Assembly (NCBI RefSeq): GCF_044704955.1
Contig: NW_027253860.1
Coordinates: forward strand, 310,001-374,000
DNA: 64,000 nucleotides
Origin: Pristiophorus japonicus
Lineage: Eukaryota
Direction of reading: 5' to 3'
The notes beneath the pieces are model-generated. The model saw nothing but the letters and a program-made list of their open reading frames with translations, was not told the DNA's origin and ran no database searches. How positions within the stretch are numbered: position 1 is the stretch's first letter; every line of letters begins with the position of its first letter. Below, piece after piece: positions 6,046 to 50,929 of this stretch. Both the position numbers and the translations under genes were made by a program.

Positions 6046-6162
6046 CTATGGGCGTTTGATGGCAGCATATTCGGTTGTCTCCTCACTGATTATTAATGTC
6101 GGGCCCACGGTTTTCTGTCGCAGGAACTGAGTATCGGCGTAATACAGCTCTCCTTCCTCCGA
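6046..6162 (-). CDS. Receptor gene terminal coding exon with ITIM-like and ITSM motifs
   Basis: Acceptor tatgtcactgtgtttcag|. Reads SEEGELYYADTQFLRQKTVGPTLIISEETTEYAAIKRP-TAG, the ExLxYAxxxF...TEYxxI layout of Siglec/SIRP-type inhibitory tails. Confidence 0.85.
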   Translation of the reverse strand, partial: SEEGELYYADTQFLRQKTVGPTLIISEETTEYAAIKRP

Positions 6163-13139: not shown

Positions 13140-13183
13140 CACAGTCGAGGTTGCGGCTGCCTGTTTATTAGTCTGGGTTGCAG
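13140..13183 (-). CDS. Receptor gene cytoplasmic exon 2 (phase 1-0, 44 bp)
   Basis: Acceptor gttcttatatttcag| and donor |gtgagt. Reads (A)ATQTNKQAAATSTV and supplies the phase 1-to-0 bridge needed to reach the last exon. Confidence 0.7.
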
Positions 13184-33610: not shown

Positions 33611-33654
33611 CACTGACTGTTGCATACACCGTGTTAAACTCTCCAGCGGGGGGC
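33611..33654 (-). CDS. Receptor gene cytoplasmic exon 1 with ITSM TVYATV (phase 2-1, 44 bp)
   Basis: Acceptor ctttctgtttctgcaccatctccctag| and donor |gtaaga. Phase matches the TM exon; reads (G)PPAGEFNTVYATVS. Confidence 0.8.
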
Positions 33655-41312: not shown

Positions 41313-41457
41313 CCTTCCGCTTTTAATCTGCTTTGAAAACATGCCCATTTTTTCACGTAGAATACTGCGGCTATGAAGATGCAGAGTAAGGCGGCTAATA
41401 CCAGGGCACAGACTGCAATGCTGATGATGATATTCAGAGACCACTTTTCAGATAACT
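41313..41457 (-). CDS. Receptor gene exon: short stalk plus transmembrane helix (phase 1-2, 145 bp)
   Basis: Acceptor ttttgatattttacag| and donor |gtaaat. In frame with V2 it reads ELSEKWSLNIIISIAVCALVLAALLCIFIAAVFYVKKWACFQSRLKAE(G): a long uncharged hydrophobic stretch followed by KK. Confidence 0.88.
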
Positions 41458-43257: not shown

Positions 43258-43605
43258 CGGTTACATTGAGCTGGGTCCCTGCTCCATAGATGTAGCTCCA
43301 CACACTGCAGCTGTAGGCAGCAGTATCACTAAGGGACACATTCATGATGGTCAGAATGTAACTGTTACTGGTGATGTTCCTGGAAGGCAGAAAACGGTCG
43401 TGGAAACCCCAGGACTTGGTAATGGTGCCATTCACAAACTGGCTCATCACCCACTCGCTGTTGTTCCCGGGTCGCTGGCAGTGCCAGTGGACATCAGCGT
43501 CACTCACACTGGCATTGTACATGGCACATTGTAACTGCACGGTTTCACCCTCTGGGACCTTGCTGACTGTTGGATGCTGAACAAGGACCGGATCAGCCAA
43601 TGGAT
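43258..43605 (-). CDS. Receptor gene exon: Ig V-set domain 2 with joined J-like G strand (phase 1-1, 348 bp)
   Basis: Acceptor tttcccatgtacag| and donor |gtaagt. Translation PLADPVLVQHPTVSKVPEGETVQLQCAMYNASVSDADVHWHCQRPG...DTAAYSCSVWSYIYGAGTQLNVT; 60/111 residues identical to V1 in an ungapped hand alignment. Confidence 0.93.
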
Positions 43606-43689
43606 CTGTACATGGGAAATATATGGAGCTTAACACAAAGAAATATATTTCTCCAGCTTTCAAAGTTTAACAATTTATAACATTTGGAG

Positions 43690-44487
43690 TTAGAAGGTTA
43701 TGGGTTCATGTCCCACTCCAGAGACTTCAGCACATATCTAGACATTCCAGTGCAGTATGGAGTGCAGTAGGCTGACACTCCCAGTGCAGTGCTGAGGGAG
43801 CGCTGCACTGTCCGAGGAGCCAGCTTTTGAATGAGTTGTTAAACCGAGGCCCCGTCTGCTCTCTCAAGTGGATGTAAAAGATCCCACGGCACTATTTTGA
43901 AGAAGAGCAGGGAAGTTATCCCCAGTGCCCTGGCCATTATCACATTGCTGTTTGTGGGAGCTTGCTGTGTGCAAAGTGGCTGCCATGTTTCCTACATTAC
44001 AACAGTGTCTACATTTCAACAAGTACTTCATTGGCTGTAAAGTGCTTTGGGACATCATGAGGTCATGAAAAGCACTGTAGAAATTCAAATCTTTCTTTCT
44101 CAGAGTCACAATGTCGTGGGTTCAAGTCCCACTCCAGAGATCCCAGCACATATCTAGACACTCCAGTGCAGTATGGAGGGTGTGCTGCACTGTTGGAGGT
44201 GCTGTTATTGAAATGAGATGTCAAACCAAGATTGGCATCTCAGTTGGATGTAAAAGATCTCACGGCATTATTCGAAGATTAGCAGGGGAGTTCTCCCAGT
44301 GTCCAGGCCAACATTTATACCTAAAACACATGATCTGGCTATTTATTTAATCGCTGTTTGTGGGACCTTGTGTGTTTCCTAAATTACAACAGAGACTACA
44401 CTTCACATGTACTTCATTGGCTTATGTAAAGTGCTTTGGGACATCCCGAGACTGAAAGGCACTATAGAAGTGCAGGTTCTTTCTCTT
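43690..44487 (+). mobile_element. Two tandem DeuSINE (SacSINE1-like) copies
   Basis: gggttca.gtcccactccagaga head, gctgcactgt..gagg..g...gatgtaaaagat core and cattggct..taaagtgctttgggacatc tail, each occurring twice. Confidence 0.8.
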
Positions 44488-44639
44488 AGTGTCTATCCCT
44501 GATGCCTCCAAAAGGCCAATGGAAGGCTGGGACCAGGCATATCCGGGTCCAGGAATAATTTGCAGCCCTCCCATGCACTCCAGGCAGAGTTATAGCAGCA
44601 GAGTGGCCGAGAGCTGTGGATAAGAACATAAGAAGTTAC

Positions 44640-47600
44640 GGACATTGGAACAGGTTCTGGGGGAGGTGGGACCAGTACAAACCAGGCGGTCTGCACATAG
44701 GCAGGACCGGAACCAATGTCCTGGGGGGAGTGTTTGCTCGTGCTGTTGGGGAGGAGTTAAACTAATATGGCGGGGGATGGGAACCAATGCAGGGAGACAG
44801 AGGGAAACAAAAAGGAGACAAAAGCAAAAGACAGAAAGGAGATGAGTAAAAGTGGAGGGCAGAGAAATTCAAGGCAAAAAACAAAAAGGGCCACTGAATA
44901 TAAAGGGGCTGGAGGAAGGGTCAAAACTAAAAATCATGCTTTAAAAACTAGTCTTAAAACAGTCTACCTAAAAGCACGCAGCATTCGAAATAAAGTAAAT
45001 GAGTTGACGGCACAAATCATTACAAATGGGTATGATTTGGTGGCCAATACAGAAATGTGGTTGCAAGACCAAGACTGGGAATTAAACATACAGGGGTATC
45101 TGACGATTCGGAAAGATAGACAAGAAGGGAAAGGAGGTGGGGTAGCTCTGTTAATAAAGGATGATATCAGGGCAGTTGTGAGAGACGATATTGGCTCTGA
45201 TGAACAAAATGTTGAATCATTGTGGGTGGAGATTAGAGATAGTAAGGGGAAAAAGTCACTTATAGGCCCCCAAATAATAACTTCACGGTGGGGCAGGCAA
45301 TAATCAAGGGAATAATGGAGGCATGTGAAAAAGGAATGGCAGTAATCATGGGGGATTTTAACCTACTGATCGATTGGTTAAATCAAATCGCACGGGGTAG
45401 CCTGGAGGAGGAATTCATAGAATGCATATGGGATTGTTTCTGAGAACAGTATGATACAGAACCTACAAGGGAGCAAGCTATCTTAGATCTGGTCCTGTGT
45501 AATGAGACAGGAATAATAAATGATCTCCTCGTAAAAGATCCTCGCGGAACGAGTGATCACAGTATGATTGAATTTGTAATACAGATTGAGGGTGAGGAAG
45601 TAGTGTCTCAAACGAGCGTACTATGCTTAAACAAAGGGGACTACAGTGGGATGAGGGCAGAGTTGGCTAAAGTAGACTGGAAACACAGACTAAATGGTGG
45701 CACAATTGAGGAACAGTGGAGGACTTTTAAGGAGCTCTTTCATAGTGCTCAACAAAAATATGTTCCAGTGAAAAAGAAGGGCGGTAAGAGAAGGGATAAC
45801 CAGCCGTGGATAACCAAGGAAATAAAGGAGAGTATCAAATTAAAAACCAATGCGTATAAGGTGGCCAAGGTTAGTGGGAAACTAGAAGATTGGGAAAATT
45901 TTAAACGACAGCAAAGAATGACTAAGAAAGCAATAAAGAAAGGAAAGATAGATTACGAAGGTAAACTTGCGCAAAACATAAAAACGGATAGTAAAAGCTT
46001 TTACAGATATATAAAACGGAAAAGAGTGACAAAAGTAAATGCTGGTCCCTTAGAAGATGAGAAGGGGGATTTAATAATGGGAAATGTGGAAATGGCTGAG
46101 ACTTTAAATAATTATTTTGCTTCGGTCTTCACAGTGGAAGACACAAAAACCATGCCAAAAATTGCTGGTCACGGGAATGTGGGAAGGGAGGCCTTGAGAC
46201 AATCACTATCACGAGGGGGGTAGTGCTGGACAGGCTAATGGGACTCAAGGTAGACAAGTCCCCTGGTCCTGATGAAATGCATCCCAGGGTATTAAAAGAG
46301 ATGGCGGAAGTTATAGCAGATGCATTCGTTATAATCTACCAAAATTCTCTGGACTCTGGGGAGGTACCAGCGGATTGGAAAGCAGCTAATGTAACGCCTC
46401 TGTTTAAAAAAGGGGGCAGACAAAAGGCAGGTAACTATAGGCCGGTTAGTTTAACATCTGTAGTGGGGAAAATGCTTGAAACTATCATTAAGGAAGAAAT
46501 AGCGGGACATCTAGATAGGAATAGTGCAATCAAGCAGACACAACATGGATTCATGAAGGGGAAATCATGTTTAACTAATTTACTGGAATTCTTTGAGGAT
46601 ATAACGAGCATGGTGGATAGAGGTGTACCGATGGATGTGGTGTATTTAGATTTTCAAAAGGCATTCGATAAGGTGCAACACAAAAGGTTACTGTAGAAGA
46701 TAAAGGTACGCGGAGTGAGATGAAATGTATGAGCATGGATCGAGAATTGGCTGGCTAACAGAAAGCAGAGAGTCGAGATAAATGGGTCCTTTTCAGGTTG
46801 GAAATCGATGTTAGTGGTGTGCCACAGGGATCGGTGCTGGGACCACAACTGTTTACAATATACATAGATGACCTGGAAGAGAGGACAGAGTGTAGTGCAA
46901 CAAAATTTGCAGATGACACAAAGATTAGTGGGAAAGCGGTTGTGTAGAGGACACAGAGAGGCTGCAAAGAGATTTAGATAGGTTAAGCGAATGGGCTAAG
47001 CTTTGGCAGATGGAATACAATGTCGGAAAGTGTGAGGTCATCCACCTTGGGAACAAAAACAGTAAAAGGGAATATTATTTGAATGGGGAGAAATTACAAC
47101 ATGCTGTTAGGCAGAGGGACCTGGGGGTCCTGTGCATGGATCCCAAAAAGTTAGTTTGCAGGTGCAGCAGGTAATCAGGAAGGCGAATGGAATGTTGGCC
47201 TTCATTGCGAGAGGGATGGAGTACAAAAGCAGGGAGGTCCTTCTGCAACTGTATAGGGTATTGGTGAGGCCGCACCTGGAGTACTGCGTGCAGTTTTGGT
47301 CACCTTACTAAAGGAAGGATTTACTAGCTTGAAGCGGGTGCAGAGACGATTCACTCGGCTGATTCCGGAGATGAGGGAGTTACCTTATGATGATAGATTG
47401 AGTAGACTGGGTCTTTACTCGTTGGAGTTCAGAAGGATGAGGGGTGATCTTATTAGAAACATTTAAAATAATGAAAGGGATAGACAAGATAGAGGCAGAG
47501 AGGTTCGGGGAGACTAGAACTAGGGGGCACAGCCTCAAAATACGGGGGAGCAAATTTAAAACCGAGTTGAGAAGGAATTTCTTCTCCCAAGGGTTGTGAA

Positions 47601-47833
47601 TCTGTGGAATTCTCTGCCCAAGGAAGCAGTTGAGGCTAGCTCATTGAATGTATTCAAGTCACAGATGGATAGATTTTTAACCAATAAGGGAATTAAGGGT
47701 TATGGGGAGCGGGCAGGTAAGTGGAGCTGAGTCCACGGCCAGATCAGCCATGATCTTGTTGAATGGCGGAGCAGGCTCGAGGGGCTAGATGGCCTACTCC
47801 TGTTCCTAATTCTTATGTTCTTCTGTTCTTATG
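44640..47833 (+). mobile_element. CR1 LINE, from the end of ORF1 to the 3' tail, frameshifted
   Basis: APE and RT ORF fragments at 44767-46696 and a recognisable C-terminal region; tcttatgt tail. Confidence 0.93.
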
Positions 47834-49045
47834 TAGGAGGAGGAGTAGGCCATTTGGCTCCTCGAGCCTGCTCCGCCATTCAATAAGATCATGGCTAATC
47901 CGATCATGGACTCAGCTCCACTTTCCTGCCCATCTCCGGAATCAACCTGGTGAACCTTCTCAGAACAGCCTCCAATGCAAGTCTATCCTTCCGTAAATAC
48001 GGAGACTAAAACTGCACGCAGTACTCCAGGTGTGGCCTCACCATACCCTGTGTAGAAGTGTGATGATAGAATTAGATTAGTTCTCACTGGAGCAGGGATA
48101 TTTCATTGAGAGAGGACATGAAGCAGGTTTTTTAAATGCTGAAAATAGACTGGGGTATAGAGGGCATAATTTCAAAGTTTGCAGATGAGGAGGAAAGCAG
48201 CAGCCTCCAGGAGGACTGGTGAAATGAGCAGATACATGGCAGATGCAATTTAATGCAGAGAAGTGTGAAGTGATGCATTTTGGAAGGAAAAATGAGGAAC
48301 GGTAATATGAACTAAATGGTGCAATTATAAAGTGGGTGCAGGAACAGGGAGCCCTGGAGGTTCACATACAAATCTTCATAGTGGCAGGACAAGTTGATGA
48401 GGCTTTAAAAGAGCTAAAAAACCCTGGGTTTATAAATCGAGGTGTAGAGTACAAAAGCAAGGAAGTGATGCTAAACCTCCATACATCACTGGTTAGACCT
48501 CAGCTGGACTATTGTGTCCAATTCTGGGCACCACACTTTAGGAACAATGTCAAGGCCTTGGTGAGGGTGCAGAGGAGATTTACTAGAATGAGACCAGAGA
48601 TGAGGGACTTCAGTTATGTGGAGAGACTGAAGAAGTTAGGATTGTTCTCCTTAGAGCAGTGAAGTCACAGGGGGATTTAATCGAGGCGTTCAAAATTCTG
48701 AGGGGTTTTGCTGGAGTAAATGAGGATGAAATGTTTCCAGTGTGGGGAGGATCAGTAACCAGAGCACACAGATTGACGATAATTAACAAAAGTACCAGGG
48801 GGGAGGGGGGAAAGAGATGAGAATTCCTTTTTACGCAGCGAGTTGCTGTGATCTGGAATGCGCTGCCTGAAAGGGCGGTGGAAGATTCAATAGTAACTTT
48901 CAAAATGGAATTGGATAAATATTTGAAAAGGAATAAAATTGCAGGGCTGTGGGGAAAGAGCAGGGGCAGTGGGAACAATTGGATCGTTCTTTCAAAGAGC
49001 CAGCACGGGCACGATGGGCCGAATGGCCTCTTTCTGTGCTGTAAG
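47834..49045. mobile_element. CR1 fragments (minus strand 47834-48050, plus strand about 48140-49045)
   Basis: LVRPQLDYCVQFWAP and IWNALPERAVE motifs. Confidence 0.8.
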
Positions 49046-49429
49046 ATTTATATAAAAGCTTGGATAATACAAGTGTAAACTTTATCAAAGTTTGATTCAA
49101 ACAGAAGGAAGTCGGAGCATAAAACTGGTCAATGGGACTGTGGAGCGAGAACAGCTTGTATTGTGAGACAGCAAGTACCTAAAATATACAGCGCATGGTG
49201 TTTGTCTCAATGTTATACCAGTGATGGTCATCCCTGCCCTACTTCAATAACTGCACTTGGTGCGAGGGGGAACACATCCTCTGCCCAGAACATCGCAAAT
49301 CCAGCCAAACAATTTTTATAGAATTAACCACAAATCATTATTTCAGGTGAATTTACAAAGAATGAACAAATCCTGTCGGGAGCGGAAAGGAGCAGCATAA
49401 AAATCAACTTAGGAATTAAATCGAGGGTA

Positions 49430-49967
49430 AGGGAGGGATATGTGGGTGGGGGAGGGGAGGGGATGTGCGGAGACATGGGGATGTGGGTGGGGGAGGGGGG
49501 ATGTGGGTGGGGGAGGAGACGTGGGGGAGGGGGGATGTGGGTGGGGGAGGGGGGAAGTGGGTTGGGGAGGGGACGTGGGGGAGCAGGATGTGGGTGGGGG
49601 AGAGGGGGCGTTGGTGGGGGAGGGGACGTGAGGGAGGGGGAGGGGACGTGGGGGAGGGGGAGGGGACGTGGGGGAGGGGACGTGGGGGAGGGGGAAGGGA
49701 CGTGGGGAGGGGGAGGGGTGATGTGGTTGGGGGGGGACGTGGGGGAGGGGTGATGTGGGTGGGGGACGACGTGGGGGAGGGGTGATGTGGGTGGGGGAGA
49801 GGACGTGGGGGAGGGGGAGGGGTGATGTGTGTGGGGGAGGGGACGTGGGGGAGGGGGGTGATTGGATGGGGGAGGGGACGTGGGGGAGGGGGAGGGGTGA
49901 TGTGGGTGGGGGGGACGTGGGGGAGGGGGAGGGGTGATGTGGTGGGGGGGATGTGGGGGAGGGGGAG
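49430..49967. repeat. G-rich repeat (ggggaggggacgtg)n
   Basis: Seen directly. Confidence 0.92.
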
Positions 49968-50584
49968 ATCAGCACAGCCCGGGTTCAGCTTTCCCGATGT
50001 GAAACTTTGAATGGGCCGCGCCGCCCGTTAAAGGGACCACGCATCAAAAAGCAAATGCAGGGTAACACTGATGGGGATATGTGTGGGTGTGAATGGTAAC
50101 TTGGGCAAGGAGTCAGGGCCTGTGGACTGGACCATCACGAGGAGAAAATAGGTGCAGATAAATGTGAGAAATTATTGCAAAACTATCTGCTGCTGAGTTG
50201 CACTGTGACGGATTACTGGCACTTCAACGTTTAGTAATGTTGAATTTTAAAAGAATCAAATCGCCTTAGAATTCCTAATCCCTGTCAGTGTAAGTGAAAT
50301 CACACTTTAGGCGAAACAATATATTTCCATCAAGTTTGGGAAGCTCCTGTGTTCTATTGAGAAGTGAAGTGTGTATAAGAGGGATCCCACAATGCCGTGC
50401 TCCCAGTGAGAAGCTACAGTCCCATGGAATGTGGGTCAGATATAGGGCCACAACATCACAGCCCCAATTCTCCAGTCCATGCTCCCAGTGTGTGTGTGCC
50501 TCTCGACTGGGAGTGTATTGTTGTAAAATTACCCTCTCTGTAGTAATGCTATTATGAATAAAACCAAATGTAACTTATACTTAC

Positions 50585-50929
50585 TGGTTACATTGAGCTG
50601 GGTTCCGTTCCCGCTGATATCGCCCCACACTTTACAGTAATAGGCGGCAGTGTCACTGGGCTGCACGTCTGTGACTGTCAGAATGAAGCTGTTATTGGAG
50701 GTGTCTCTGGAAGGCTGGAGACGGTCAGTGGAACCTGGGCTCCCTCGTGTGCTGCCACTTGCCTCATGTGTTAAAACCCACTCCATATCTTGCCCCGGTA
50801 GTTGCCGGTACCAGTGGACATCGGTGTCACTCACTCTGGCGTTCCGCATGGTGCACTGTAACCTCGCCGTGTGACCCTCTGTGACACGTTCCAGGCTCGG
50901 AGACTGGGTCAGGACAGGGACAACTGCAC
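50585..50929 (-). CDS. Receptor gene exon: Ig V-set domain 1 with joined J-like G strand (phase 1-1, 345 bp)
   Basis: Acceptor ttttcccattaaag| and donor |gtaagt. Translation (G)AVVPVLTQSPSLERVTEGHTARLQCTMRNARVSDTDVHWYRQLPGQDMEWVLTHEASGSTRGSPGSTDRLQPSRDTSNNSFILTVTDVQPSDTAAYYCKVWGDISGNGTQLNVT has the canonical Cys, WYRQ, DxAxYYC and GxGTxLxV motifs. Confidence 0.93.

Follow-up and report, generated by a model that had tools for sequence, protein, structure and literature searches.

The two V-type exons lying within positions 43,258 to 50,929 of the DNA analysed here (the window: 64,000 nucleotides of an unplaced contig of the sawshark Pristiophorus japonicus) encode the second and third domains, VB and VC, of a spliced, non-rearranging membrane protein with three V domains. 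The gene is probably an inhibitory member of a chondrichthyan paired-receptor family whose V+J exon probably came from the sigma-2 (type I) light-chain lineage. The wider proposal, that in the shark-ray-chimaera ancestor a light-chain exon founded an innate paired-receptor family, passing from adaptive to innate use and giving rise to an NITR/KIR-type counterpart with a fast-evolving outer domain, is in our judgement evenly balanced.

When database proteins were mapped to the window and to 200 kb of surrounding sequence, an intact gene of eight exons over 83 kb emerged, in the order leader, VA, VB, VC, transmembrane (TM) and three tail exons. The leader exon (projected 89203-89254) and the exon of the first V domain, VA (projected 76935-77288), fall past the window end (G000:C3248). 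The remaining exons lie inside the window on the minus strand: the VB exon (50585..50929; 345 nt, phase 1-1; Pfam V-set, E 1.8e-17), the VC exon for the membrane-proximal domain (43258..43605; 348 nt, phase 1-1; Pfam V-set, E 6.9e-15), the TM exon (41313..41457), which has both VC-TM and TM-tail splices and a predicted helix at 374-411 with no charged residue in its core, and the three tail exons. The first of these (33611..33654) carries TVYATV, an ITSM-type motif; the second (13140..13183) is joined in frame at GT-AG sites; and the third (6046..6162) carries LYYADT, a degenerate ITIM, followed by the ITSM-type TEYAAI and the stop codon. The preliminary description, made from the letters of the window, had the leader and VA exons beyond its view and missed the TM and tail exons inside it. 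Joined at GT-AG sites, the eight exons form a single frame of 482 aa, the same sequence as P0330, which UniRef lists under Pristiophorus japonicus as an 'uncharacterized protein'. Three of the seven splices (VB-VC, VC-TM and TM-tail, the joints examined) are seen in contigs of public runs that carry no recorded run type. The VB-VC splice occurs in contigs of three runs (X18, X19, X20), with a shifted joint in a fourth, other-organism run; the VC-TM splice occurs in two of four runs and the TM-tail splice in two of three. In the predicted model, three V-type sandwiches are followed by a TM helix and a tail that is disordered (pLDDT 76, pTM 0.34).

VB and VC had been described as single-exon V+J domains related by exon duplication, and their structure stands as given. 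The CDR3 and J end reads C-KVWGDI-SGNG-TQLNVT in VB and C-SVWSYI-YGAG-TQLNVT in VC, each followed by a phase-1 gtaagt donor. A recount returned the same gap-free identity of 60/111 residues (217/333 nucleotides), and the motif atattt(t)cccat was again found at both acceptors; outside it, the 300-nt flanks give weak local alignments only (scores 20-21). The duplication is real but ancient. In the trees, VA, VB and VC each form a cross-species group that includes skate, with chimaera domains joining VB, and the VB/VC duplication thus predates the shark-ray split. The VC exon holds six N-glycosylation sequons. The intron between VB and VC (window 44700-49000) is full of high-copy repeat sequence, which we take to resemble decayed LINE fragments.

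Neither exon is flanked by recombination signal sequences (RSS), as had been reported. The best heptamer-spacer-nonamer in VB or VC, or up to 500 nt away, has 4-6 mismatches, whereas a signal with 0-3 accompanies every one of the 15 split V segments from this genome that served as controls. Over the gene span, two hits at three or fewer mismatches were found, on par with shuffled sequence (0-2). Contigs span the V-J junctions without gaps, and the somatic rearrangement that had been named as counting against a germline-joined exon is not seen. A rearranging Ig or TCR locus is ruled out by these gapless contigs together with the lack of RSS-flanked split V and J segments.

Judged by sequence comparison, the gene is part of a multigene family that extends across chondrichthyans, in sharks, rays and Callorhinchus. 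Of 114 longer protein hits, 113 have several V domains, carry automatic names only and come from sharks, rays, skates and Callorhinchus, the remaining hit (P0114) being a type I-like light chain; a Callorhinchus protein (P0318) has the plan leader-V-V-V-TM. The sawshark assembly contains at least 55 near-full VB-type exons at 88% or more, at least 20 VC-type exons, at least 31 full-length VA exons and at least 18 copies of this TM exon, counts that may include haplotype duplicates. The copies are located on C9 (0.6-6.1 Mb) and on unplaced contigs. CDR3 is six residues long in 289 of 290 family domains. The J-like GxGTxLxV is kept, and the phenylalanine at position 118 is mostly replaced (F in 47 of the 290, Y in 90, S in 105), which suggests that the Fv-like pairing seen in antibodies has been lost in these domains. 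A TM segment is clear in 98 of 124 family proteins, and among these 98 an ITIM pattern is present in 61 and an ITSM pattern in 34.

Several individual copies depart from this plan. Thirteen VB copies cease matching at residue 110, and the one that was read (L179, C1414:136020) has a frameshifted J-like end. Among the VC paralogs (L181-L199), 8 of 19 have a GC donor and 1 of 19 a GA donor. Database models P0006, P0036 and P0037 read through the VC donor intron to a stop, so secreted forms are possible. At C9:4433000-4442208 (L021, L128), a VB exon without a donor continues into an open frame of 3056 aa built of units of about 13 residues similar to the J-like end; the 2982 aa that were read contain 206 N-glycosylation sequons. 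The skate protein P0085 (1999 aa) has the same plan of V-V-long repeat-TM, and a giant stalked family member may be conserved.

The nearest relatives of the family domains are sigma-2 light chains. P0114 is 62% identical to a skate record named 'type I immunoglobulin light chain', and type I is sigma-2 (PMC5985310, in excerpt). VB is on average 48% identical to type I (maximum 52), as against 34% to kappa, 32% to sigma, 32% to IgH, 30% to lambda, 26-28% to TCR and 18% to nectin-like domains. When a profile of eight family domains was searched over 1.84 billion representatives, the best 150 hits comprised full-length family domains at 99-154 bits, light chains of the sigma-2 clade at 71-96 and other Ig and TCR domains below 68. 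The top solved-structure matches of the domains are antibody V domains; a fold search yielded engineered antibodies with several V domains and did not tell the isotypes apart.

Trees agree with this placement. The family grouped with sigma-2 in three of three trees, with support of 92/87 (87 rows), 84 (79 rows) and 92/80 (45 rows), on a branch that was never starred. These trees were built from alignments of 96-106 columns in which PRARP, UrIg, UrIg2, TCR beta, IgNAR and SIRP are absent, and seven of the rows are called sigma-2-like by tree position rather than by source name, only type I being a named record. The 79-row set gave a quick tree, for which eight rows had been dropped (five long branches, two badly cut domains and one divergent family domain), and the 45-row set was picked after the first trees had been seen. 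In the 45-row tree, the family is one starred clade (97/98) within a starred clade of Ig and TCR gamma (100/98), with TCR alpha/delta outside; in the 87-row and 79-row trees, it is not a single clade.

From FR1 to the second cysteine (96 aa), the family aligns with sigma-2 (type I, sigma-cart, NS5) without gaps, the D-strand motif R-F-x-P-S-R-D occurs in seven of eight type I rows, a short leader remnant stands at the exon start, and the donor after J is in phase 1. The CDR1/CDR2 lengths of VB and VC are 8/7, matching those given for this isotype (PMC5985310, in excerpt); shark VH of this genome also has 8/7, and the match may therefore be ancestral rather than exclusive to sigma-2. Joined sigma-2 genes occur in skates, gar, turtles and coelacanth. 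There are also differences: the family has no C1 exon and has instead tandem V domains, a TM segment and a tail with tyrosine motifs; its CDR3 is fixed at six residues where type I mostly has 8-11; F118 survives in the minority noted above; and the CDR1 of VA has 12 residues. A search for linkage between the family and type I genes found none in the species compared, where contigs of both are listed. When the type I light chain of another shark was used as query, no close ortholog was present among 150 candidates scored in the sawshark genome, the best V hits being VB exons of the family, at 52%; the canonical sigma-2 gene may be absent from this genome or have diverged.

PRARP is a VJ receptor with ITIM and ITSM motifs. 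It is unlikely, but deserves weighing, that the source of the family was not a working light chain but a non-rearranging VJ(-C1) gene of the PRARP/VJC1 kind near sigma-2, or that the family is itself the shark version of such a gene. Joined VJ-C rows (P0298, P0305 and L121) do sit at the base of the same group and have GNG-type G strands in common with the family. The family is nevertheless nearer to type I than to these three rows (38% mean identity, maximum 44), and no bony-vertebrate family member was named among the 20 profile hits (10 + 10) that were looked up. A PDB search with P0298 found no UrIg chain among the best 60 matches.

The preliminary description had offered either a relic of the unsplit VJ exon from before RAG or a co-opted germline-joined exon, with V-domain phylogeny as the check. 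Co-option, with the sigma-2/type I lineage as its source, is favoured by the profile scores, the identities and the grouping in the trees; a relic that never rearranged, like NCR3 or UrIg, has a rather small probability, and a tree that places the family outside all Ig and TCR was not rejected by AU tests (p 0.227 and p 0.112). A single CDR3 length suits a never-split exon as well as it suits one joining event, and several sigma-2-clade genes are joined too, among them L121 on C23, whose sigma-2-like V is joined and whose C exon is frameshifted, and the sigma-2 genes of gar, turtle and coelacanth (PMC5985310, in excerpt). The sigma-2 group, however, also has a rearranging member with a 12-RSS (L122), and the horn shark type I light chain is split (PMC2193156, in excerpt); with split, RSS-bearing members inside the group, the joined state is secondary by parsimony. 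Moreover, in all three best trees the family sits inside the Ig V domains and TCR alpha/delta is excluded, so a relic would require more than one RAG split. An identity of 48% to one light-chain isotype far exceeds the 28-32% between the V domains of UrIg and UrIg2 (PMC12227049, in excerpt), and all named family hits are chondrichthyan. Genomic position likewise argues against a relic: C9, which is chromosome-scale, has no PBX or BET marker, these being on C8, C19, C20, C24 and one unplaced contig, and TCR alpha/delta-IgH hits are on C23 and not on C9, unlike the known relic candidates (PMC12227049 and PMC10751288, both in excerpt).

Comparison with described receptors separates the family from each of them. 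None of the 124 family proteins carries the C1 motif that was searched for, and VC splices directly to the TM exon, which rules out membership of IgL. A row of the 87-row tree labelled NITR-like, which we take to be such, fell far outside the family on a long branch. Like NITR, the family is a clustered, multigene, lineage-specific expansion with germline-joined J-like ends and with both ITIM and charged-TM forms (bioRxiv 2021.06.11.448072, in excerpt); a J-like sequence is present in the V exon, and the inhibitory and charged-TM forms are recognised by their motifs. It differs in that its V domains, which number from one to many, are of the Ig light-chain type, and in lacking the six-cysteine I domain (there are two cysteines each in VA and VB and three in VC); NITR membership is ruled out. 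Cartilaginous fish are reported to be without NITR homologs (cited in the same excerpt). UrIg and UrIg2 are elasmobranch, non-rearranging, single-exon VJ genes with a split leader; their products have 3-11 C1 domains, and their loci are in the MHC or beside IgH/TCR alpha-delta (PMC12227049, in excerpt). The family has no C1 domain and is found on another chromosome, on C9 and unplaced contigs without MHC or IgH/TCR linkage, so membership here is ruled out as well.

Joined VJ domains are also found in a set of immunoglobulin-superfamily members comprising PRARP, NCR3/NKp30, SIRP, CD8 and CD79 (PMC11599192, in excerpt), and the family resembles this set in having such a domain in a non-rearranging surface receptor. 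In the 87-row tree, rows of this genome labelled CD8-like and NCR3-like fall outside the group of family and sigma-2. These rows are presumably what their labels say. SIRP and PRARP signal via tyrosine motifs. The family is absent from the known joined-VJ receptors in the part of PMC11599192 that lists them, and no description of it was found in the full-text literature covered, a scope outside which most subscription journals lie.

The tail motifs of this copy are TVYATV, LYYADT and TEYAAI, and most relatives read LYYADI at the middle position; from these predicted motifs, the gene is likely an inhibitory receptor. Short-tailed forms with an arginine in the membrane segment exist in Scyliorhinus and Chiloscyllium, and a matching Arg-TM exon is found on C9. 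There, at about 640500-688600 (L216, L119), lies a divergent family member with two V domains whose TM exon encodes an arginine; it matches Scyliorhinus P0198 and Chiloscyllium P0200 and is a candidate activating receptor. In the mechanism proposed, a single germline V-J joining before the chimaera-elasmobranch split would have produced the phase 1-1 exon; loss of its C exon, acquisition of exons for the TM segment and the tail, and tandem duplication would have followed. Variable ligands, either of pathogens or polymorphic self, would be bound by VA, the outermost domain, with VB and the glycan-rich VC as spacers holding VA off the membrane. Tail tyrosines would recruit SHP-type phosphatases, and the Arg-TM member, pairing with an ITAM adaptor, would oppose the inhibitory form. 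These binding, spacer, phosphatase and adaptor roles are modelled on paired receptors generally.

The divergence between VB and VC across the C'-C'' region had been put forward as a ligand-contact surface. The count of 3/16 matches there is confirmed, yet it comes from the 16-residue window with the fewest matches, and a value as low was reached by 7.9% of 20,000 shuffles (p 0.08). In each of six comparisons, conservation is lower in the C'-C'' region than elsewhere (0.53 vs 0.70 between type I chains), and the VB loops are near-fixed across paralogs, leaving that proposal unsupported. The suggested comparison of dN/dS by region did reveal loop diversification, located in VA, outside the window, and not in the VB loops. 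The VA loops (CDR1, C'-C'' and CDR3) have 42 replacement and 6 silent changes, against 6 and 4 in the VB loops (Fisher p 0.0007). Under a codon model, omega is 4.75 for the VA loops (LRT 19.3 vs omega=1) and 1.09 for the rest of VA, and 0.60 for the VB loops and 0.97 for the rest of VB; these values come from recent paralogs, among which gene conversion can inflate the estimate. The sample comprised 30 VA and 30 VB loci, in each case the closest among about 50-55 (VA 26/30 intact, with 2 bearing stops and 2 unparsed, 23 unique; VB 30/30 intact, 23 unique), and 19 VC loci, 10 unique. On this pattern of codon change, the diversifying domain is VA and not VB or VC.

Framework omega near 1 in both VA and VB suggests that many copies may be weakly constrained, and many are broken by stops or truncations. 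Both observations would suit a family of the same origin whose members serve non-immune adhesion or self-recognition, or are mostly neutral by-products of segmental duplication. Such an outcome is improbable: the same domain types and tail motifs recur from sawshark to skate, both tail types are present, and the excess of replacements is restricted to the VA loops. That the protein is an ordinary V-set adhesion protein whose J-like strand arose by chance is scarcely credible. Some automatic names do read 'junctional adhesion molecule-like' or 'V-set and Ig domain protein 1-like', and a feature search gives TIGIT-, MPZL- and JAML-like clusters at 0.93-0.95. Nectin-like V domains, however, are just 18-20% identical against 42-48% for type I, the best solved-structure matches are antibody V domains, and the grouping with V-set adhesion proteins that the preliminary description had set against its own proposal is not observed.

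Single-exon VJ genes are the main evidence for reconstructing the gene that was split by the RAG transposon (PMC12227049 and PMC10751288, both in excerpt). If co-option of a sigma-2 exon is true, such genes can also arise after RAG and need not be pre-RAG relics, and the direction from adaptive to innate would reverse the usual story. The family would also supply named candidates for variable inhibitory and activating leukocyte receptors of cartilaginous fish, with VA and its loops as the place to seek a ligand. Separately, a large kappa-like light-chain cluster was observed at C8:138.9-148 Mb, about 5 Mb from a PBX gene, a marker of the MHC paralogon.
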